The notes under the pieces are model-generated. The model worked only from the letters and a program-made list of their open reading frames with translations. It searched no databases and was not told the DNA's origin. Shown here piece by piece: positions 1 through 57,521 of a stretch of DNA of 64,000 nucleotides. Each line of letters opens with the position of its first letter. The stretch's first letter is position 1. The DNA is taken from the IMG/VR virus record IMGVR_UViG_3300030329_003387; one strand, given 5' to 3'. A program made the translations under genes and the position numbers. The stretch comes from a virus.

Positions 1-1014
1 GTTTGCTACCACAGAAGCAGTAGTTTAGGAACTCTGGAGTTCTGCGAACAAAAGTATTTTCTCCAGTACAATCTATCCTACAAGGACAAGACGAACAAAA
101 AAGCTCTCATGGGTACTATTACCCATAAGGTTATGCAGATACTTGGAGACAAGTCACTGGCTGTTGCCAAAGGTGAAGACAAGGTCGTTGATGACGAGCT
201 TGGTACTTTTACACTGAAGCAATGTGACGATCTATCGTATGTAAATGACTTGGCTTTTGACTATTATGTCAACAATTTTCCAGAGGTTGTCCTTACGGAC
301 TCTGAAAAACGAACCTGCTTAAAATGGGCTGAGAAAGCCGTGGCCTATCAGGATGGAATGTTTGATCCTAGAAATCAAGATGTATTTGCGACAGAGCTTT
401 TCTTCGACATTGAAATACAGGAAAACTGGGCAAAGTACAACTACAGGGTAGGTAAAGAAAATGTCAAAGGCAACTTGGCTATAAAGGGAACCGTTGACTT
501 AATCGTAAAACAGGGCGAAAACTATTACGAGATACTAGATTATAAAACCGGCAAGAGAATTAACTGGGCTACTGGAGAAGAGAAGACTTTAGAGAAGCTA
601 CAAAAAGACACTCAGCTCCTCCTGTATTACTACGCCCTAAAAAACATGTACCCAGAAGCAGAGTTTTCTGTAAGCATTTTTTATATTAACGCTGGTGGTG
701 TTTTCTCAATGGTCTTTGACGAAGACGACTACAAAAAAGCAGAAAACATATTGAGACAAAAATTTGAGAAAATTAAGAGAAGTCAAAATCCAAAACTCTT
801 ATCTAACGAAAACTCACATTGGAAGTGCCGCAAGCTCTGTAAGTTTAGCCAACCTTACAAAGAAGGTTCAAAGAAAAGTGTGTGTCAGCATATTAGAGAT
901 GAAATAAGAAAAGACGGAATCTTAAAAGTTGTTGAAAAATACGGAGATGTCAACAAGCTGTCAGCATACGGAGATGGCGGCGGTAGACTCGCAGAAGATA
1001 CTAAGAAAAAATGA
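1..1014 (+). CDS. Cas4/AddB-like PD-(D/E)XK exonuclease with probable Fe-S cysteines (5'-truncated by window)
   Basis: Frame is open from base 1 (VCYHRSSSLGTLEFCEQKYF..., a typical S-S...C...Y N-terminal motif). Has GTITH, GTVDLI, ILDYKTG, QLLLYYYA and a C-terminal C-x3-C...C cluster. Confidence 0.85.
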   Translation, partial: VCYHRSSSLGTLEFCEQKYFLQYNLSYKDKTNKKALMGTITHKVMQILGDKSLAVAKGEDKVVDDELGTFTLKQCDDLSYVNDLAFDYYVNNFPEVVLTDSEKRTCLKWAEKAVAYQDGMFDPRNQDVFATELFFDIEIQENWAKYNYRVGKENVKGNLAIKGTVDLIVKQGENYYEILDYKTGKRINWATGEEKTLEKLQKDTQLLLYYYALKNMYPEAEFSVSIFYINAGGVFSMVFDEDDYKKAENILRQKFEKIKRSQNPKLLSNENSHWKCRKLCKFSQPYKEGSKKSVCQHIRDEIRKDGILKVVEKYGDVNKLSAYGDGGGRLAEDTKKK

Positions 1015-2918
1015 ATTGGACTCCATTACATTTACACAGTCACTACAGCCTACTTGATGGCCTGTCTAGGCCGCAACAGATCGCAAGCAGGTGTGCAGAC
1101 TTGGGATTTAGCTCTTGCGCACTGACAGATCACGGAACCGTGTCTGGAGCTGTCTCTTTCACTAAGGCTTGTAAAGCAAAAAATATCAAACCTGTGTTAG
1201 GCTGTGAGTTCTATCTCAGTCAAGACGACGCAACGGTAAAAGAAACATCAAACAGAACCCTGAGTCATCTTGTAGTGCTGGCAAAGAACAAGACTGGCTG
1301 GGGAAAATTGATCGAGGCTGTATCTCGCAGTAACGATGAAGATGTTTATTATTACAAGCCGCGATTAGACTTAGATTTGCTCGGTCAATATGCTAACGGA
1401 GACCTTTTGGCTTTTAGTGGGCATTTAGGCAGCGACATGGCTAACGCGATTTTTACAGACTATAAAGCTGCGTATGGTCAAGAAACAGAGGCTGGAGTTA
1501 AGAAGTATATAGACCCAAGCTGGGTTGAGAAAGTCACAAAAGTCGCATACAAATATATGGATATATTTGGTAAAGAAAACTTTCTAATCGAAGTGCAGTG
1601 TATAGACCAAGATAACTCTCCAGCAGCAAAGCTTGTAGCGCAAGGGATGCGCTATATCGCTAAAACATTAAAGATACCCTCGATAGCGACCTCAGACTCA
1701 CACTATCCAGAAAAGAAGGATTCACCAGACCACCTACTACTTTTGTGTTCTGCGATGAAAACAACTCTTAGAAAGATAAAAAGCAAGTTAGATAACAATG
1801 AGGACGTTGGTTTCTCTGGGTTTATGAAGTCTAACAACTTCCACATCCCAACTTTACAAGAGATGAAGGCAATACATACAGAAGCTGAATTGCAGAATAC
1901 CATGCATGTGGCCGACATGTGTGAAAGCTATGACATTCTTGGTCAGCCAATGTTGCCTAAGTTTAAATGCCCAGAAGACATGGCGGAAGAGGCTTACCTA
2001 AAACATTTATGCAGAGAGGGATGGAAAAATTTCCTCATGCCAAGTGGTAAGATAAACACAAAAACATCTGAAGATATATATGCCGACAGAATAAAAAAAG
2101 AACTTAAAGTCATAAGTGATGCAAACCTGTCTGGATACTTTCTGATAGTAAGAGATATAGTTAACAATATTAGATCAAACTCTTGGATTCCCGGACCCGG
2201 AAGAGGTTCTGCTGCTGGATGCTTGGTTTCTTATTTGGTGGGCATAACACAGGTTGATCCCATTGAGTATGGATTAATCTTTGAAAGATTTTATAACGCC
2301 GGAAGAAATACAGAAGATCACATATCACTTCCAGATATTGACATAGATGTACCGGCATCCAGAAGGGACGACACCATAGACTATATAAGAGACAAGTATG
2401 GACATTCAAAAGTAAGTCAAATGGTTACATTTGGAAGACTTCAAGGGCGAAGCGCACTTAAAGAAGTTCTACGTATGAATGAGGCTTGCGGTTATGACGA
2501 AATGAATGTCATAACAAAAAGTCTACCACCCGAACATGAAATATCTGACCAACTAGCGGACATGGACGATCCATCAGTAATACGGTGGACTTTGATAAAT
2601 CAGCCGGAAGTCTTGAGAGAGTATTGCAGGATGAATGACGAAGGCGAGCTAGAGGGCGACTATGCAAAATTGTTTGAACAAGCAATGCGCATTGAAGGTA
2701 CATTCAAGTCTCAGGGTAAGCACGCAGCTGGAGTTGTAATTTCCTCCAATAATTTGAACGAGGTATGTCCTATGGTTAGAGACAAATCTAGTTCAGAAAA
2801 AATGGCCGGTATGGAAATGAACGACCTTGAGGCTATGGGTCATGTCAAGTTTGATGTTTTAGGCATCTCACTTTTAGATAAAGTAATGGGTATTAGAGAC
2901 CAACTGGAAGAATCTTAA
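1011..2918 (+). CDS. dnaE: DNA polymerase III alpha, N-terminal part (PHP + palm/thumb)
   Basis: HLHSHYSLLDG, LTDHG, GCE, SDSHY (PHP); GPGRGSAAG, FERFYN, PDIDID, HAAGVVI, KFDVLG. Ends shortly after KFDVLG. Confidence 0.95.
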   Translation: MNWTPLHLHSHYSLLDGLSRPQQIASRCADLGFSSCALTDHGTVSGAVSFTKACKAKNIKPVLGCEFYLSQDDATVKETSNRTLSHLVVLAKNKTGWGKLIEAVSRSNDEDVYYYKPRLDLDLLGQYANGDLLAFSGHLGSDMANAIFTDYKAAYGQETEAGVKKYIDPSWVEKVTKVAYKYMDIFGKENFLIEVQCIDQDNSPAAKLVAQGMRYIAKTLKIPSIATSDSHYPEKKDSPDHLLLLCSAMKTTLRKIKSKLDNNEDVGFSGFMKSNNFHIPTLQEMKAIHTEAELQNTMHVADMCESYDILGQPMLPKFKCPEDMAEEAYLKHLCREGWKNFLMPSGKINTKTSEDIYADRIKKELKVISDANLSGYFLIVRDIVNNIRSNSWIPGPGRGSAAGCLVSYLVGITQVDPIEYGLIFERFYNAGRNTEDHISLPDIDIDVPASRRDDTIDYIRDKYGHSKVSQMVTFGRLQGRSALKEVLRMNEACGYDEMNVITKSLPPEHEISDQLADMDDPSVIRWTLINQPEVLREYCRMNDEGELEGDYAKLFEQAMRIEGTFKSQGKHAAGVVISSNNLNEVCPMVRDKSSSEKMAGMEMNDLEAMGHVKFDVLGISLLDKVMGIRDQLEES

Positions 2919-2919
2919 T

Positions 2920-3171
2920 ATGAGTAGACAATTTATAAAAGATAGGATTGAGAACAAAAGATACGTTGAGTTCAAATCTCTGTCGATATGCAAAATAAAT
3001 GATTTTTATGACAGGATGGTACAAAAAGATATGTATCAAGTTCACTGCTCCAACCCTAAATGCTTACAGCAAAAAGAATCTACATCAAAAAAAATACCAT
3101 TCAGTATGCTTTACGAAGATATTGAACAAGCGTTAAATAAATTTATTGAACTAAGGAAAAAGATAAGATGA
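2920..3171 (+). CDS. hypothetical protein (83 aa) between the dnaE halves
   Basis: Fills the gap exactly: starts 2 nt after the dnaE-N stop and has an ATGA overlap with the next gene. Confidence 0.7.
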   Translation: MSRQFIKDRIENKRYVEFKSLSICKINDFYDRMVQKDMYQVHCSNPKCLQQKESTSKKIPFSMLYEDIEQALNKFIELRKKIR

Positions 3172-3851
3172 ATTACAGAGATATTATTGTATTTGACTTT
3201 GAGACGGGTGGTAGAAACCCATATAAGTGTCAACCGACACAAATTGCCGCAGTTGCTATTCATGGGCGCAAGCTCACCGTGCAGCCCGGAGGTTATTTTA
3301 ATAGTGAAATACGACCTATTTTAGATGACGATAAGGCTATTGAGCTGGGTTTAGATCCAGTAGAGGACGAAGCTCTCGCCGTCACTAGAAAGAATAGAGA
3401 AGATTTAGCAAAAGCGCCGCAGCCAAAAGCGGTTTGGCAAAAGTTCACAAACTTTGTCAATAAGTACAACTTCAAAAAAACAAACTACTACGCTCCTATC
3501 GCTGCTGGTTACAACATAATTGGTTTCGACATGCCTATCGTTGAACGTATGTGCCAACAATATGGTCCTACGCACAACAAGTCAGGCAGGCAGGGCTTGT
3601 TTAATCCTATTCACAAGGTTGATTTAATGCATACGGTATGGATGTGGATGGAGAACAACGCAGACGTTAAATCCTTAAGTATGGATTCAATGAGAGACTT
3701 GCTTGGTATGGACAAAGAAAATGCCCATGACGCTTTACAAGACGTAAAAGACACTGCCAATCTATTAATTGCCTTCATGAAGCTTATCAGAAGGGTTTCT
3801 CCTAGCGTAAAATTTGAAAAGGCATTTGCAGATGGAAACATCCACCTTTGA
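3168..3851 (+). CDS. DEDDh 3'-5' exonuclease (DnaQ/epsilon-like)
   Basis: ExoI VFDFETGG, ExoII GYNIIGFD, ExoIII AHDALQD. Confidence 0.92.
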   Translation: MNYRDIIVFDFETGGRNPYKCQPTQIAAVAIHGRKLTVQPGGYFNSEIRPILDDDKAIELGLDPVEDEALAVTRKNREDLAKAPQPKAVWQKFTNFVNKYNFKKTNYYAPIAAGYNIIGFDMPIVERMCQQYGPTHNKSGRQGLFNPIHKVDLMHTVWMWMENNADVKSLSMDSMRDLLGMDKENAHDALQDVKDTANLLIAFMKLIRRVSPSVKFEKAFADGNIHL

Positions 3852-5403
3852 TCCTATAAACCTATCTTTTGACGACGAGTCCACATGGGACACAATCTGT
3901 AGCGGAAGAACAAAGGGCGTTTTTCAGTTAGAGAGTAGTTTAGGAAGAAGTTGGGCTAAGAAAGTTAAGCCCAAGAATATGGAAGAGCTTTCCGACTTAA
4001 TAGCCATCATCCGTCCGGGATGTTTAAAAGCTATAGTTGATGGAAAGTCTATGACTCAACATTACGTCGATAGGAAGAATGGTGAAGAGTCAGTAACATA
4101 TTTACACGAATCATTAGAGCCAATCCTAAAGAAAACTCAGGGTGTACTTGTTTATCAAGAGCAGTCAATGCAGATAGCTCAACAGTTAGCTGGTTTTAGC
4201 CTTCAGGACGCTGACGACCTTCGTAAGGCCATCGGCAAAAAGAAGGCAGATCTAATGGCTAAAGTAAAGAAGTCTTTCTTAACTGGGGCTGATAGTAAAG
4301 GTATCGTTACCAAAGAAACGGCTGAAGAGATTTTTAGTTGGATTGAAAAATCTAGCCGTTACGCCTTTAACAAATCTCATGCTGTTAGTTATGCTATTTG
4401 CGGATATTGGAGCGCATACGCTAAAACGCATTATCCGCTACAGTTCTACTGTAACTATCTTAGGTATTCGGGCGGAAAGCCAGATCCACAGAAAGAAGTC
4501 AAGGAGCTTGTCACAGACGCTAAGTCTAACGATATATTCATACATCCTCCATCCTTAGATCATCTCAACGAAGAGACTGACGTAATAAACGACACAATCT
4601 ACTTTGGACTCAAAAACGTCAAGTCTCTAGGCTCTAATACGATAGCAACAATAAGAGATAATATTTCTGATCTAAAAGAGTCTTTGAAATCAAAGGAATG
4701 GACTTGGTATGAATTTTTAGTCCTCATTTCTAGGAAGATAAACAAAACGGCAACCAGAGCTTTAATATCGTCTGGAGTTTTGTCAAACCTTAAAGTTTCA
4801 AGACAAAAGATGCTCTATGAATTTGACACGTTTGAAAAGCTATCCAACAAAGAAATAGAATGGGTTTCAGAAAATTACCAAGCCTTTGACTCGTTGCTAG
4901 AGCTTCTTAGAAGTCTAGGTAGACCGAGAAAAGAGGGTGGCGGGGTTACAAATAAGAATAGACTGGAGATAGTAAAAGATTTGATACAGCAGCTAGAAGA
5001 TCCGCCAGTCTCCCTACACGACGATCCAGAGTGGATAGTTAGAACGGAAGAAAATTACTACGGCGTGTCACTAACCTTTTCCAAAGTAGAGTCTTCAGAT
5101 ACCAGCAGGGCTGACACCACATGTAAAGATCTCATCAATGGCAAAGAGGGCAAGGTCATGATTGCCGCAACAGTTTCCGAAACGAGGAAGTATGTACCGA
5201 AAAAGGGCAAGAACGCTGGCAATGAAATGGGTTTTTTAGAGATAGAGGATGCTACTGGTAGCGTTGATAATATAACTCTTTTTAATGAAGCTTGGATTAA
5301 ATATAAAAATGTTCTATATAATGGAAACAATATACTTATAATAGGAAAATCATCCAAGGGCAAAAGAGATGGCGTTATAGTAGACGAAATATTTGAACTG
5401 TAG
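3832..5403 (+). CDS. dnaE: DNA polymerase III alpha, C-terminal part (fingers, HhH, OB fold)
   Basis: TKGVFQLES, AIIRPG, TQGVLVYQEQ, ADDLRKAIGKK, YAFNKSHAVSY, FGLKNVKSLG, C-terminal OB fold (MGFLEIEDATG). ORF is open from TTG 3814; ATG at 3832 is preferred. Confidence 0.93.
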   Translation: METSTFDPINLSFDDESTWDTICSGRTKGVFQLESSLGRSWAKKVKPKNMEELSDLIAIIRPGCLKAIVDGKSMTQHYVDRKNGEESVTYLHESLEPILKKTQGVLVYQEQSMQIAQQLAGFSLQDADDLRKAIGKKKADLMAKVKKSFLTGADSKGIVTKETAEEIFSWIEKSSRYAFNKSHAVSYAICGYWSAYAKTHYPLQFYCNYLRYSGGKPDPQKEVKELVTDAKSNDIFIHPPSLDHLNEETDVINDTIYFGLKNVKSLGSNTIATIRDNISDLKESLKSKEWTWYEFLVLISRKINKTATRALISSGVLSNLKVSRQKMLYEFDTFEKLSNKEIEWVSENYQAFDSLLELLRSLGRPRKEGGGVTNKNRLEIVKDLIQQLEDPPVSLHDDPEWIVRTEENYYGVSLTFSKVESSDTSRADTTCKDLINGKEGKVMIAATVSETRKYVPKKGKNAGNEMGFLEIEDATGSVDNITLFNEAWIKYKNVLYNGNNILIIGKSSKGKRDGVIVDEIFEL

Positions 5404-5432
5404 TTGCAAAAGCTCTTTAGTGAGCGTATATT
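5404..5432 (+). promoter_or_regulatory. sigma70-like promoter upstream of ssb
   Basis: TTGCAA (5404-5409), 17-nt spacer, TATATT (5427-5432), in one of the few intergenic gaps. Confidence 0.55.
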
Positions 5433-5469
5433 GTATGTAGTAAGAACAACTTATTGCAAGGATGGTACT

Positions 5470-5886
5470 ATGAACACTATTTCAAATTATTGCCGATTTA
5501 TTGGTCGCCTAACTGAAGACCCACATCTCATCAAAGTAGACAAAACAGAGTTATGTCGATTTACTTTAGCCGTAACTGAATATAGGCGAGAAAAAAGCCC
5601 TGACGGAGAAAGTAAGAAAAAGAAGAGCGTAAATTACTTTGATTTTGAAGCTTGGGACACCGGAGCGACAACTCTTGGCAAATATTGTAAAAAGGGTGAC
5701 ATAGTAGATGTAGTGACCTCAGCTAGAAATAATAACTGGACAGACAAAGAAGGAAACAAAAAGTTTCAGACAAGATTTAGAGTGAAAGAGTTTAAGCTTT
5801 TTAACACAAATCAAAACACGTCTAGTGTTCCGGATGGGGCGAGCAATGAAGGTAAGCTCGAAAAATCCGAACTGCTAAATGAATAA
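5470..5886 (+). CDS. ssb: single-stranded DNA-binding protein
   Basis: N...FIGRLTEDP, FTLAV, YFDFEAWD, YCKKGD, WTDKEG. ATG 5470 is preferred over TTG 5404. Confidence 0.9.
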   Translation: MNTISNYCRFIGRLTEDPHLIKVDKTELCRFTLAVTEYRREKSPDGESKKKKSVNYFDFEAWDTGATTLGKYCKKGDIVDVVTSARNNNWTDKEGNKKFQTRFRVKEFKLFNTNQNTSSVPDGASNEGKLEKSELLNE

Positions 5887-6376
5887 ACAGAGAAGAAATA
5901 CAACGGACAAAGAGCTTGAAGACCAACTAATTCGTAACAATTACGGACTGGTTGTTAGTCAAGCTCTTTCTTTTTTATCTAAAAACTCTAGCTTAGATGA
6001 ATTTATACAGGCCGGACTGATAGGTCTGCTAAGAGCTATAAGACAACATGATGAAGATATATCTAAGTTTTCTACCTATGCTACCGTATGCATTAGGAAT
6101 GAGATACAAAAACTAAAAAGCAAAAACAAAGACAAAGATGTTAAAGTATTCTTTGACAACAATCTTTTAGCAAAAAGTCTAAAAGATAAGTACTATATAA
6201 AAGAAAGCTTCTTTGATTATGTGCCGGATTATCTATCAGAAGAAGAGAACTTCATACTCAAGCTAAAGCTTGAAAATTATACCAACGCAGAAATTTGCGA
6301 TTTTCTAAATTGCACTAGAGTTGTTTTGAATAAAAAATTAGAGACGCTCTTTGAAAAAATTAGGGAAGCTAATTGA
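5879..6376 (+). CDS. phage sigma-70-family RNA polymerase sigma factor
   Basis: Region 2: LIRNNYGLVV...IQAGLIGLLRAI...KFSTYATVCIRNEI. Region 4-like: LSEEENFIL...YTNAEICDFL. Confidence 0.88.
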   Translation: MNKQRRNTTDKELEDQLIRNNYGLVVSQALSFLSKNSSLDEFIQAGLIGLLRAIRQHDEDISKFSTYATVCIRNEIQKLKSKNKDKDVKVFFDNNLLAKSLKDKYYIKESFFDYVPDYLSEEENFILKLKLENYTNAEICDFLNCTRVVLNKKLETLFEKIREAN

Positions 6377-35561: not shown

Positions 35562-35897
35562 ATGAAAGTTAATTACACAAACAGCACCGGAAGAATCAGT
35601 GCAGAAATTATTGCAGATACTCAAGTTGAAGTTTTTGAGCAACTAGCTCATTTTCAAGAAATCTTTGATGAATCTGCCTGTGGCAAATGTGGAAGTGAGA
35701 ATATTCGTTTTCAAGTTCGCACAGTAGAAGATAATCTTTACTACGAACTTCGTTGTATGGATTGCGGCGCAAAGCTAGCATTTGGAACAATGAAGAAGGG
35801 TGGAAGACTGTTTCCACGACGTAAAGATAAGGAAGGAAACTGGCTAAACGACCGTGGATGGGTTAAATGGAACCCTGATACACAACAGGAAGAATAG
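35562..35897 (+). CDS. zinc-ribbon hypothetical protein
   Basis: CGKCGS and CMDCGA pairs. Confidence 0.7.
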   Translation: MKVNYTNSTGRISAEIIADTQVEVFEQLAHFQEIFDESACGKCGSENIRFQVRTVEDNLYYELRCMDCGAKLAFGTMKKGGRLFPRRKDKEGNWLNDRGWVKWNPDTQQEE

Positions 35898-35904
35898 TCG
35901 GTGG

Positions 35905-35946
35905 ACAAAAGAAAAGCCCGTCTCTTATGAGTCGGGCTTTTTTTGT
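35905..35946. terminator. bidirectional rho-independent terminator
   Basis: A-tract, stem AAAAGCCCG-T-CTC, loop TTAT, GAG-T-CGGGCTTTT, T-tract; sits between the convergent gene blocks. Confidence 0.88.
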
Positions 35947-35970
35947 GAAGTTAGCGGGTGCAATATGGGT

Positions 35971-36681
35971 TTATAGATATTCTAACTCCACGTATAGTCC
36001 ATATAGGGTTTTACTTCCAACGCTGTCTGGAGATGCGGAAATTCCAACATACCAGTCATGTTGTGTGTATTGCCCTGTGTTAGATGAACCATCTCCAGCA
36101 AAAATACCACTAGGGCCGGGAGATTGTGCTAATGGGACGAAAATGCCACTACCACCTACGGTATTAGTACCAGCAGGAAGTCTGCTGCTTGGATTGGGAG
36201 AACCCTGAAACGAGCCTTGAGCATCTGTTCCAGTATGGGTTGAGCCTCCCCACCAAAGTGCATCTCCAGAACCTTCTATACTATAGGAAGAAGATGGATG
36301 TAGAAGTTCGCACGCCCTAGTAATTACACCACTAGCTGGGTGATCTTTATTTGTTCTATCGAATATTCTTAATTTACAGTTTTGCGTTCTAACAGCCGTG
36401 CTATTTGTAAATCTAATATTAGCTGTTGCTTTTTCATTTGGTATGTATCTTAAACCTGTGGCTGGAACTATGCCAGCAGCAAAACCTAGACTGTCTGTTG
36501 AGTATTTTACATTGTTTGCAGCACCACCCTGTACAGTACCATTTCCGTCTGTAATAAAGGTTGTGTCTTGAAATTTGTTGATTTCTACCGATGCACCAAA
36601 AGAACCACCAAAAAACCCTAACCCAGATCCTGACAGGTGATTTACAACTGTGTTACCAGCATAAAAACTTATTGAAGCCAT
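35971..36681 (-). CDS. putative virion structural protein
   Basis: Gly/Ser-rich beta-type sequence, strong AGGAGAG RBS, last gene of the tail block. Confidence 0.6.
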   Translation of the reverse strand: MASISFYAGNTVVNHLSGSGLGFFGGSFGASVEINKFQDTTFITDGNGTVQGGAANNVKYSTDSLGFAAGIVPATGLRYIPNEKATANIRFTNSTAVRTQNCKLRIFDRTNKDHPASGVITRACELLHPSSSYSIEGSGDALWWGGSTHTGTDAQGSFQGSPNPSSRLPAGTNTVGGSGIFVPLAQSPGPSGIFAGDGSSNTGQYTQHDWYVGISASPDSVGSKTLYGLYVELEYL

Positions 36682-55043: not shown

Positions 55044-57521
55044 CTAATCTGTAGTTCTATAACCTTGAGTATATAAAGTTGCATCCCAATTACCGCTGGA
55101 TTTTATGGAAGGAATAACTAGATCCATTGTTCCGCTAGATATGGTTCTCCCAACAGTTACCATGTCCGCACTATTATTAGTATTTACAATAGGCTTTCCA
55201 CTAAACCTTTTACCCTTAACCAAAAATTGTGGATCATCCGGCTGCATATATAGATTCATTGAATCATTATGTTTATACTCCGAAGGACCAAGTAAATATA
55301 GCTTTGTAGTATTGACCCCACTTTCCGTTGTCTTTACTGATAACGGCATAGTAGCTATAGGCTTCTTACCTTGAATAAACTGTGGAAAATTGATATTGAA
55401 TTTTGCAGGATCAATTTTAGGGAATGCTAGGTTCATTCCTACTTCTGCAACACCAGTAGGAGCTTCTGGTATTATCAAAAGGGGCATAGTTTTTTGTATG
55501 TATGGGTAAATATTTACGCCACCCTTAGTTTCTAAGTTCAAGTTATTATTTGCATAATAAACCTTACCGCCGATAAACAGCGTTTTTGTCATTTTTTCAA
55601 TAGCGCCGAGAAGACTTAAGTTCATGCTGTCATTAATTGTTACGCCAGCATTAGCACTAAGATAGCCATGACCTGTATCACCCATACTGGTTTTGGCATC
55701 TTGATTTATGACTAGCGGCATACTCTGTGTAGCTTTGTCAGTAAATACCGTTAATCTAAGATCGCCTGAAGCTTTCGCTTTCAAGCCGCCATCGACAAAC
55801 AATGGAAGGTCAACGCCATTTCCGGGAGATAAGGGATTTCCGGCAACGGTTAGTTGTCCATCAATATTGTTGTACTTGTTATATCTGTCAAACCCTGTGT
55901 ATCTTATCTTTGTTGAGTAAACTTTAAATTCAGCATCATATGGATGGTCGTACTCTGGGTAGAATACTGTAAGGTTAAGTTTATGTTCTCTAAAGTCTTC
56001 TCTAAAAGAATTTCCATTTTGATAGAAGTTGCTGACCCCATCTAATGGAGCTTCAAAGGTAATCTTTTGCTTTTCCCCAGAAGGAACCATAATCCCACTA
56101 GGAAACCAATTCAAACTTTTATATTTATTTATTAAAAGTTCATGTTCTTTATGCAATAACGCGGCTGAAAACTTAGCTCCACTTGGGTGATTTGTACTGT
56201 TCTCTACCCATACATCTACAGCAACGGTATCAAGTTGGTGGAAGGTAGGAGGTGTTTCTTCTATCCTAACACTTAGAACAGATGACACAGCGTAGTTTGA
56301 ATTGCCCCAAAGATTTGTGTCATAAGCTCCACCTAAAGCTTTTTCGCTATTACCTGAAGCTACAGTAAATTCAATATAGTCTTTGTCTTGAGCGTCAAAA
56401 GCCCCACTAAATAAACCAGCCTTAAAAGCAGCTCCGGTTGGCGCAGAATAACTTTTTATAATATCTGTAACGCCAAACGTATGATTATAAAACTTACTAA
56501 CCTCTTCGTCGCTAAAAGTCTTGTTACTAATACCTACTTCGTCTACCCATCCGGTATAACCACGTTCAGATATGGCAAACCCTCGTTTACCTAAAATTAT
56601 GTCAGTATTATCAGCTCCAGTTACGTCCCTGCTAAAAGTATTGGACTCACCTTCAATTTTACCGTTTACATAAATCTTTAATCTTGACTCGCCAGAAGCA
56701 AAAACTCCAACAACATGTGCTGGATATTTGTATTCTTGATAGTTCTTTGCTGACTTTGCTACAAAAGCTGTGTTAAGACCAGAAACGTTTCCATCAGAAC
56801 GTATGTAGAACTTGCCGTCAAAGTCACAGCCTAGAACAAATTTAGCTGGATTTTCTTTGTGCTGAGCGAGAATAACGGTATCACTTATATCGCCACTGGG
56901 TAATATTTTAGAGTAAACCGTAAAGCCCTTTGCGTCACTTAGACTGACGCCGCTACCTAAATTAACATTGGCTCTTTCAGAAAGGAATAGACATCTTTCT
57001 TGTATAGCTTCTCGACCTACTATACCTACGAGATCTCCGGCCTTTTGCCATACAGCAAAACCGTCTCCAGCAGAGTCTCCATCGGCAGTACCGGAAGAAC
57101 CACCACCAACACCTGCGGTACATGGGCCGGAAACAACACCACCCATATAACCAGCTCCGTCAGGTGGATCTGTACATCCACAAGTAGCGTCGTATGAATC
57201 AGGTTGATCTCCACATAGGTTTGAATATAAAAACCATTCAGCCCCATCCCACATCCAAGCGCAACCCTCTGGGTCACAACCCAGTCCACTGGCATTAGTG
57301 GATGTGCCTTTTTTAGACTTTACAACAGGAGAGCCAGAATACAGACCGCTACCCTCAAGAGGCATGTAAAGTTTATTAAACTTCCTTACAATCTCTTTAT
57401 TGTAACTCCCTCGCCAGTATCCGAATTCTCTGTTTACACCACTAGGAAATATTTCTCTTTCCTCTACGTGGGCAACACTTCCGAATATGACTAGGCCCAT
57501 ATTTCCTGAAGAAGCGGTCAT
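55044..57521 (-). CDS. LamG/concanavalin-A-like domain virion protein
   Basis: HVVGVF...LKIYVNGK...IILG...GWVDEVGISNKTFSDEEV..FY; short N-terminal Cys module; C-terminal MxL repeats. Confidence 0.75.
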   Translation of the reverse strand: MTASSGNMGLVIFGSVAHVEEREIFPSGVNREFGYWRGSYNKEIVRKFNKLYMPLEGSGLYSGSPVVKSKKGTSTNASGLGCDPEGCAWMWDGAEWFLYSNLCGDQPDSYDATCGCTDPPDGAGYMGGVVSGPCTAGVGGGSSGTADGDSAGDGFAVWQKAGDLVGIVGREAIQERCLFLSERANVNLGSGVSLSDAKGFTVYSKILPSGDISDTVILAQHKENPAKFVLGCDFDGKFYIRSDGNVSGLNTAFVAKSAKNYQEYKYPAHVVGVFASGESRLKIYVNGKIEGESNTFSRDVTGADNTDIILGKRGFAISERGYTGWVDEVGISNKTFSDEEVSKFYNHTFGVTDIIKSYSAPTGAAFKAGLFSGAFDAQDKDYIEFTVASGNSEKALGGAYDTNLWGNSNYAVSSVLSVRIEETPPTFHQLDTVAVDVWVENSTNHPSGAKFSAALLHKEHELLINKYKSLNWFPSGIMVPSGEKQKITFEAPLDGVSNFYQNGNSFREDFREHKLNLTVFYPEYDHPYDAEFKVYSTKIRYTGFDRYNKYNNIDGQLTVAGNPLSPGNGVDLPLFVDGGLKAKASGDLRLTVFTDKATQSMPLVINQDAKTSMGDTGHGYLSANAGVTINDSMNLSLLGAIEKMTKTLFIGGKVYYANNNLNLETKGGVNIYPYIQKTMPLLIIPEAPTGVAEVGMNLAFPKIDPAKFNINFPQFIQGKKPIATMPLSVKTTESGVNTTKLYLLGPSEYKHNDSMNLYMQPDDPQFLVKGKRFSGKPIVNTNNSADMVTVGRTISSGTMDLVIPSIKSSGNWDATLYTQGYRTTD

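Follow-up and report, generated by a model that had tools for sequence, protein, structure and literature searches.

Background

C-family DNA polymerases are the replicases of all bacteria and, to our knowledge, are known in split form only where an intein rejoins the two halves. Here, we analyze a dnaE gene that is divided in two in the window, by which we mean the whole 64,000-nucleotide (nt) stretch of the IMG/VR virus record IMGVR_UViG_3300030329_003387, from an uncultured marine phage. In the first 6.4 kb of this stretch, an N-half gene (1011–2918, + strand) and a C-half gene (3832–5403, +) flank an open reading frame (ORF) of 83 amino acids (aa; 2920–3171, +) and a gene for a DEDDh 3′-5′ exonuclease of the proofreading type (3168–3851, +). 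We consider the pair, with a probability of roughly 0.85, to be a genuine two-gene DnaE replicase whose halves would work as a non-covalent complex.

Precedents within the C family include the cyanobacterial split DnaE and the marine “fractured” dnaE genes, the latter described with split inteins that come with or without a homing endonuclease (PMC2677866). Like the pair in the window, these are C-family replicases in two pieces, and in the fractured genes the pieces are likewise adjacent, with the 3′ end of the intervening gene overlapping the downstream piece. They differ in that split inteins rejoin the pieces, that a homing endonuclease occupies the gap of the fractured genes, and that the cyanobacterial break lies ~200 residues further downstream (PRK09532/PRK07373 mapping). 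A split “minimal” Pol III alpha was also predicted in group 2.2 jumbo phages (Iyer et al. 2021, PMC7824862). It resembles the window in that a C-family catalytic module is predicted to be made as two proteins, but it is without the PHP and other domains, its genes lie far apart, and it occurs alongside PolB, whereas the window version is full-length, has its pieces adjacent, and is the sole polymerase, judging by five near-complete relatives.

Intein-free division has been described for other phage enzymes. The N and C parts of the PhiKZ B-family DNA polymerase were shown experimentally to form a 1:1 complex (PMC13648687), and the T4-like split gp43 and Aeh1 NrdA are cited as intein-free split enzymes in PMC2677866, the T4-like breaks being attributed to homing-endonuclease invasion. 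For PhiKZ and Aeh1 NrdA, assembly without splicing was shown biochemically or structurally (PMC13648687; PMC2677866). In these systems, as in the window, an essential phage replication enzyme comes from two polypeptides, but they belong to polymerase family B rather than C, or are a different enzyme. Our literature search found no paper describing an intein-free palm/fingers DnaE split, and what is new here is an intein-free split phage polymerase in the C family, with a proofreading-type nuclease gene at the break.

Single-chain DnaE (Taq, 2HPI/3E0D; E. coli, 2HNH/5FKU; and that of Bacillus phage vB_BpsS-36, whose dnaE is contiguous) shares the domain order, catalytic triad, and finger motifs of the window halves at about 30–35% identity; compared with it, the window chain is cut after the helix behind the third catalytic Asp, two genes are inserted, and the place of a distant dnaQ is taken by an exonuclease gene within the polymerase locus. 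In phage WH1, dnaE is cut elsewhere, into three pieces. The isolate Rossellomorea phage phiT1 (PV767480; 52.8-kb genome, Bacillaceae host), for which the literature search found no paper, carries gp20 and gp18, both annotated as Pol III alpha, with gp19 (49 aa) between them and the three genes in three frames. Its cut is homologous to that of the window, with N-half residue 634 aligning to residue 569 of 573 and the gp18 start corresponding to C-half residue 6. Searched by megablast against INPHARED phages, the locus itself gave no match, and the best protein identity was 34%.

Results and discussion

Two genes together cover a full-length DnaE

The N-half is a 635-aa protein with PHP, palm, and thumb (Pfam PHP, 5e-39; PF07733, 3e-69) that, on its own, scores 456 bits with TIGR00594 (cut-off 434). 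The C-half, of 523 aa from ATG 3832, has fingers, a helix-hairpin-helix (HhH) part, and an OB-like C-terminus (PF17657, 4e-48; HHH_6, 3e-07), the OB match itself (PF01336, 6e-4, 20.1 bits) lying under the 27-bit cut-off. The parts expected of a DnaE-type enzyme are therefore distributed over the two proteins, with PHP and a palm holding three catalytic acidic residues in the N-half and fingers and HhH in the C-half, but not on one continuous polypeptide, as the two ORFs are 913 nt apart with two genes between them. The C-half frame is open from TTG 3814, while ATG 3832, used in the gene calls of public assemblies, is most likely the actual start.

Profile models and aligned DnaE sequences place the break consistently. 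The halves cover phrog_405 from 42 to 616 and from 622 to 1070, NF004226 from 4 to 565 and from 583 to 1049, and Taq DnaE from 7 to 626 and from 645 to 945, respectively. At the edges of the break, N-half residue 623 aligns to Taq residue 626 and C-half residue 14 (counted from the TTG) to residue 645, while in E. coli alpha N-half residue 623 corresponds to 563 and C-half residue 13 to 585. The break thus falls at about Taq DnaE residue 638 and E. coli alpha residues 575–579, in a linker between palm and fingers, past the helix that comes after the third catalytic aspartate. The number of residues at this point is similar in split pairs (7–13 plus 5–13, 18–23 in total) and contiguous relatives (10–20), and in the window 12 and 7 residues are unaligned at the junction. 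The domain split is clean and complementary, with no part missing or duplicated. An earlier, sequence-only reading of this DNA had likewise stated that little is missing or duplicated, and the Taq and E. coli DnaE alignments bear this out, running end to end with only a short linker; its placement of the N-half terminus just past the KFDVLG motif was correct in location, though the distance is 17 aa rather than the ~20 aa given.

The catalytic residues follow this division. All three catalytic aspartates (D442, D444, and D615) lie in the N-half, as had been claimed, and D442, D444, D446, K613, and D615 are invariant in 13 diverse homologues (39–67% identity); the PHP metal ligands also look intact in the Taq alignment. 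The C-half keeps the finger blocks YQEQ, LR[KR]A.GKK, and FNKSH, aligned with those that line the site of the incoming deoxynucleoside triphosphate (dNTP) in Taq. By analogy with established DnaE structures, the catalytic center would be shared between the two chains.

No splicing device at the junction

Since cyanobacterial DnaE and the marine fractured dnaE genes (PMC2677866) set a precedent, the halves might be covalently rejoined by a split intein, by RNA trans-splicing, or through an intron, and inteins do occur inside some N-halves of the same family (e.g., P0138 and P0129). However, intein/Hint Pfam models had no match in either half at E≤0.01, and an Rfam scan of positions 800–5600 at E≤1 returned no RNA family and no intron. 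Nor is there space at the junction for intein pieces, which would take up ~100 and 35 aa, because the halves, when aligned to Taq and to contiguous relatives, lie no more than about 20 residues apart. The gap is coding throughout, under purifying selection, and varies in length and content among relatives. It is also without a homing endonuclease, its genes being the DEDDh exonuclease and the 83-aa ORF in Pfam, PHROG, and NCBIfam scans. The sequence-only reading, which had excluded an intein at the junction and seen no room for intron RNA, is upheld on both counts, and covalent rejoining is largely refuted and extremely improbable.

Separately, many N-halves of the family (P0138, P0129, P0145, P0131, and P0163, among others) are interrupted at various sites by a full intein, or by two, with a LAGLIDADG endonuclease. 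These intein-bearing N-halves still end at the same split point, so that inteins and an intein-free cut coexist in one protein family.

The split is conserved and under purifying selection

At least 23 marine contigs from independent assemblies (Tara, JGI, and ENA; longest 151 kb) carry an identical N-half, and the same four genes are present wherever sequence reaches; recurrence on dozens of independently assembled contigs places the arrangement far beyond chance. Among the best 120 90% clusters (53–100% identity), N-half lengths range from 492 to 693 aa, most being 620–693 aa and the shorter ones incomplete. PF07733 is present in all of them, a fingers domain in none, and PHP in all but one. 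In an exhaustive search of 50%-identity clusters, the C-terminus lies no more than 32 aa (for most, no more than 14 aa) from the same profile position in 145 of the 153 nearest proteins. Gene order is equally stable: the N-half, exonuclease, and C-half follow one another in this order in all 81 IMG/VR loci in which the three genes were found. Conservation of breakpoint and gene order in related phages, which had been proposed as a check, holds down to about 40% identity.

The distances between these genes are less uniform. In the 81 loci, −14 to 6191 nt separate the N-half from the exonuclease, while the exonuclease and C-half mostly overlap or abut but can be up to 4.4 kb apart. The gap appears as a hot spot for added genes (uracil-DNA glycosylase (UDG), a SIS-domain protein, and several ORFs of 250–550 aa) while the halves stay intact, e.g., with ~6.1 kb in L034 and L037, 4.4 kb from exonuclease to C-half in L082, and additions in L015 and L050 (UDG plus the SIS-domain protein in L015). 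A sister group of metagenome loci (L178–L211) lacks the small ORF and has a shorter N-half, of about 542–564 aa, the end of which is overlapped by the exonuclease gene. In another relative (P0231, 762 aa), the N-half bears a C-terminal fusion to a circularly permuted YpsA/SLOG domain (PF12694, 1.6e-35).

Pairwise ratios of nonsynonymous to synonymous substitution rates (dN/dS; NG86, among close relatives) were 0.005–0.08 for the N-half, 0.04–0.13 for the small ORF, 0–0.06 for the exonuclease, and 0.012–0.08 for the C-half, and all four genes are thus under strong purifying selection. Synonymous divergence from the nearest relative (L001) is uneven along the operon (dS of 0.13 in the N-half, 0.55 in the small ORF, and 0.33–0.35 in the exonuclease and C-half), which suggests recombination breakpoints inside the locus.

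These data bear on whether the split is an assembly artefact or a decaying pseudogene, with a host polymerase doing the work. The rare relatives with a contiguous dnaE (P0130, P0160, P0171, and P0158) would fit such a view, and the sequence-only reading had named intact relatives combined with relaxed selection on this copy as grounds for abandoning its proposal. Contiguous relatives do exist, but neither half has relaxed dN/dS values, the same structure recurs in many independent assemblies, the catalytic residues are invariant, and the break falls at the same residue in more than 140 50%-identity clusters. Conservation and selection together refute the artefact or pseudogene explanation, to which we give next to no weight.

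The exonuclease and the small gene in the gap

The 227-aa product of the exonuclease gene matches PF00929 (RNase_T; 9e-13) and phrog_192 (5e-26), the latter labeled “DNA polymerase exonuclease subunit”. Residues D10, E12, D121, H187, and D192 of the three Exo motifs are invariant in 15 diverse homologues, and the C-terminal tail is conserved. A phmmer search of the protein against the PDB gave no match, while a profile search identified the PolC-type exonuclease 2p1j (1.9e-13) as the closest solved relative. The protein is most likely a proofreading partner with an epsilon-like role, and may be a subunit of the polymerase.

Its gene is tightly packed with its neighbors. The stop codon of the N-half is followed after 1 nt by the 83-aa ORF, the stop of which overlaps the exonuclease start as ATGA, and the exonuclease 3′ end overlaps the C-half start by 20 nt (3832–3851, +; read directly from the sequence), which places the start signals of the C-half within the exonuclease coding sequence. 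Of 115 related loci in which this junction was scorable, a larger set than the 81 loci having all three genes, 85 have a C-half start that overlaps or directly adjoins the exonuclease gene. At the exonuclease stop the window reads CTT TGA (3846–3851), and the +1 frame after CTT is that of the C-half, which would permit a prfB-like +1 frameshift yielding a fusion of exonuclease and fingers-containing C-half. However, only seven of the 115 loci have CTT TGA, namely L020 and this phage's own copies. Measured against the exonuclease, 68 loci have the C-half in frame +1, 35 in +2, and 12 in 0. Many loci have spacers or extra genes between the two, and no strong Shine-Dalgarno-like stimulator lies upstream of CTT TGA. 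The T-T-T-G-A pattern is accounted for by a Phe-Asp that is conserved at the N-terminus of the C-half and encoded in the overlapping frame. Given the rarity of CTT TGA and the varying frame relation, such a frameshift was rejected as a feature of the family, and in the window we regard it as highly improbable.

The 83-aa ORF has no Pfam, PHROG, or NCBIfam match. It belongs to a small-ORF family (A, 71–96 aa) that occupies the same position in 32 loci and is also found upstream of the exonuclease in contiguous relatives, while in other relatives the slot holds family B (57–62 aa) or family C (89–96 aa), and it is empty in L044 and in the group with a ~542-aa N-half. No homology among the three families was detected by hhalign. 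AlphaFold2 models of family A (predicted local distance difference test (pLDDT) score of 86; a helix, four strands, and a helix) and family B (pLDDT 94.6; all-beta) are unlike each other. With the 83-aa model, Foldseek gave no match at E≤0.001, and the best VIA-align match, YkuJ (Z 6.2), is too weak for a function to be assigned. As to a Theta/HOT (HolE)-like partner of the exonuclease, Pfam gave no match, and the fold-search lists, headed by YkuJ, held no theta. The candidate of a single conserved micro-subunit was thus rejected, the families being without hhalign homology and the folds of A and B differing. We treat the 83-aa protein as the product of a real gene and as an accessory, not a core subunit.

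A probable non-covalent two-chain replicase

The N-half would supply PHP, thumb, and a palm with the three metal-binding aspartates, and the C-half the fingers, with basic residues predicted to hold the incoming dNTP, as well as the HhH and OB DNA-binding parts. With palm and fingers on different chains, an active site would form only upon association of both, presumably non-covalently and across the palm/fingers interface; of the readings considered, non-covalent assembly is the one that fits all the observations. The four co-oriented genes, with their 1-nt spacing or overlaps, are probably co-transcribed and translationally coupled, and such coupling would yield matched protein amounts. A pattern scan for promoters and terminators gave no signal above chance level, which is consistent with one operon with translational coupling. 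The DEDDh exonuclease, encoded between the halves or just upstream of a contiguous dnaE, would act as proofreader, and the 83-aa protein as an accessory.

Alternatively, the halves may have separate jobs; for example, the N-half could work by itself as a PHP nuclease or in primer extension, and the C-half could be a factor that binds DNA. The intact look of the PHP metal ligands is compatible with this, as is the proposal that jumbo phages have a “minimal” split Pol III alpha, the parts of which are encoded far apart (PMC7824862). However, N- and C-halves co-occur in 81 of 81 loci with enough sequence, the C-half retains the dNTP-binding finger residues, and exactly one N-half and one C-half, with no other polymerase, were present per relative genome checked. 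In the records of five relatives (83–100% complete), one palm and one finger locus were found in separate frames and neither PolA nor PolB was detected, and the split DnaE is the sole DNA polymerase in these near-complete genomes. Separate roles are, for these reasons, quite unlikely.

Some observations weigh against a two-chain replicase with an associated proofreader. The exonuclease scores below every NCBIfam DnaQ cut-off (e.g., 18.7 bits with PRK06309, for which the cut-off is 245) and is not an epsilon orthologue by these cut-offs. The gap of phiT1, which has its cut at the same point, is unlike that of the window in lacking an exonuclease, and the split itself therefore does not depend on one. 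Furthermore, no clamp gene (beta-clamp N-domain) was found in the five relatives. The sequence-only reading had proposed a non-covalent multi-subunit phage replicase comprising both halves, an epsilon-like exonuclease, and possibly the 83-aa protein. The computational checks that were run agree with such a replicase, while the 83-aa subunit is doubtful because its slot is filled by three sequence-unrelated families (of which the two folded differ) or is empty, and the physical assembly and stoichiometry are what we infer from sequence.

Contiguous relatives and the direction of evolution

The few contiguous DnaEs in the family (P0130, P0160, P0171, and P0158) are at 46–51% identity, and P0158 has an intein in its fingers. 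Two further proteins, P0124 and P0203, were considered as split-intein variants and dropped; they are probably truncated contiguous genes, as they share 90% clusters with proteins of 1663 and 1126 aa. A scan of viral contigs for P0160 gave no match. In L173–L175 (83% identity to P0171), the gene order is small ORF (family A), exonuclease, and contiguous dnaE. With the cassette directly upstream of dnaE, the small gene and exonuclease appear to travel with the polymerase whether it is split or not, and the split and contiguous states differ by the location of the same two-gene cassette.

In the N-half tree, contiguous forms appear in two or three places within the split radiation, and monophyly of the split forms was rejected by an approximately unbiased (AU) test (delta lnL 150, p 0.0056, for a group chosen post hoc). 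In the C-half tree, the P0130/P0171 clade is again nested beside split forms, whereas that of P0160 takes a basal or unresolved position, and a single split clade was not rejected (AU test, p 0.11). Re-fusion in at least one lineage is more parsimonious, though not established. Both trees (100* sets) place phiT1 with contiguous outgroup DnaEs, and this suggests that its fission, at the same loop, was a separate event.

More tentatively, and with a chance we would put well short of even, the palm/fingers cut may be the ancestral and usual form of the replicase in a very large aquatic phage radiation and have been re-fused at least once, with the cassette then upstream of dnaE. The exonuclease would, in the same scenario, dock at the break as an integral third chain and PolC-like proofreader, and the recurrence in phiT1 would mark the loop as a site where C-family polymerases in general tolerate fission.

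Implications of the split

A two-chain DnaE in a very large aquatic phage family would mean that the palm/fingers junction tolerates fission. It could serve as a naturally occurring model of the coupling between catalysis and closure of the fingers, and as a basis for engineering split Pol III enzymes. It also matters for annotation, as the halves are routinely labeled as fragments of “DNA polymerase III subunit alpha” or mistaken for pseudogenes. With phiT1 in culture, the question can be tested at the bench.

The remainder of the window

The split dnaE belongs to a run of co-oriented replication genes that fills the first 6.4 kb. Upstream of the N-half lies a PD-(D/E)XK nuclease gene (109–1014, +), and the C-half is followed by a gene for a single-stranded DNA-binding protein (SSB; 5404–5886, +) and, directly 3′ of it, one for a sigma-70 region-2 factor (5879–6376, +), a position that is conserved in relatives. 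From 6373 to 35561 (+), about 29 kb is taken up by back-to-back glycosyltransferases (GT1/GT2) and nucleotide-sugar enzymes, including three SDR epimerase/dehydratases, a DegT aminotransferase fusion, and a HAD-nucleotidyltransferase fusion, a glycan-building island that is very large for a phage. The minus strand from 37327 to 64000 encodes giant ORFs of 3200, 621, 1399, 671, 825, and >2075 aa, the last running off the window. These had no PHROG or Pfam match except Laminin_G_3 in 55044–57521 and are presumably tail or structural proteins. At ~35600–36000, the coding strand and the signs of the GC and AT skews flip, and it is here that the replication and glycan genes of the plus strand give way to the giant ORFs of the minus strand.

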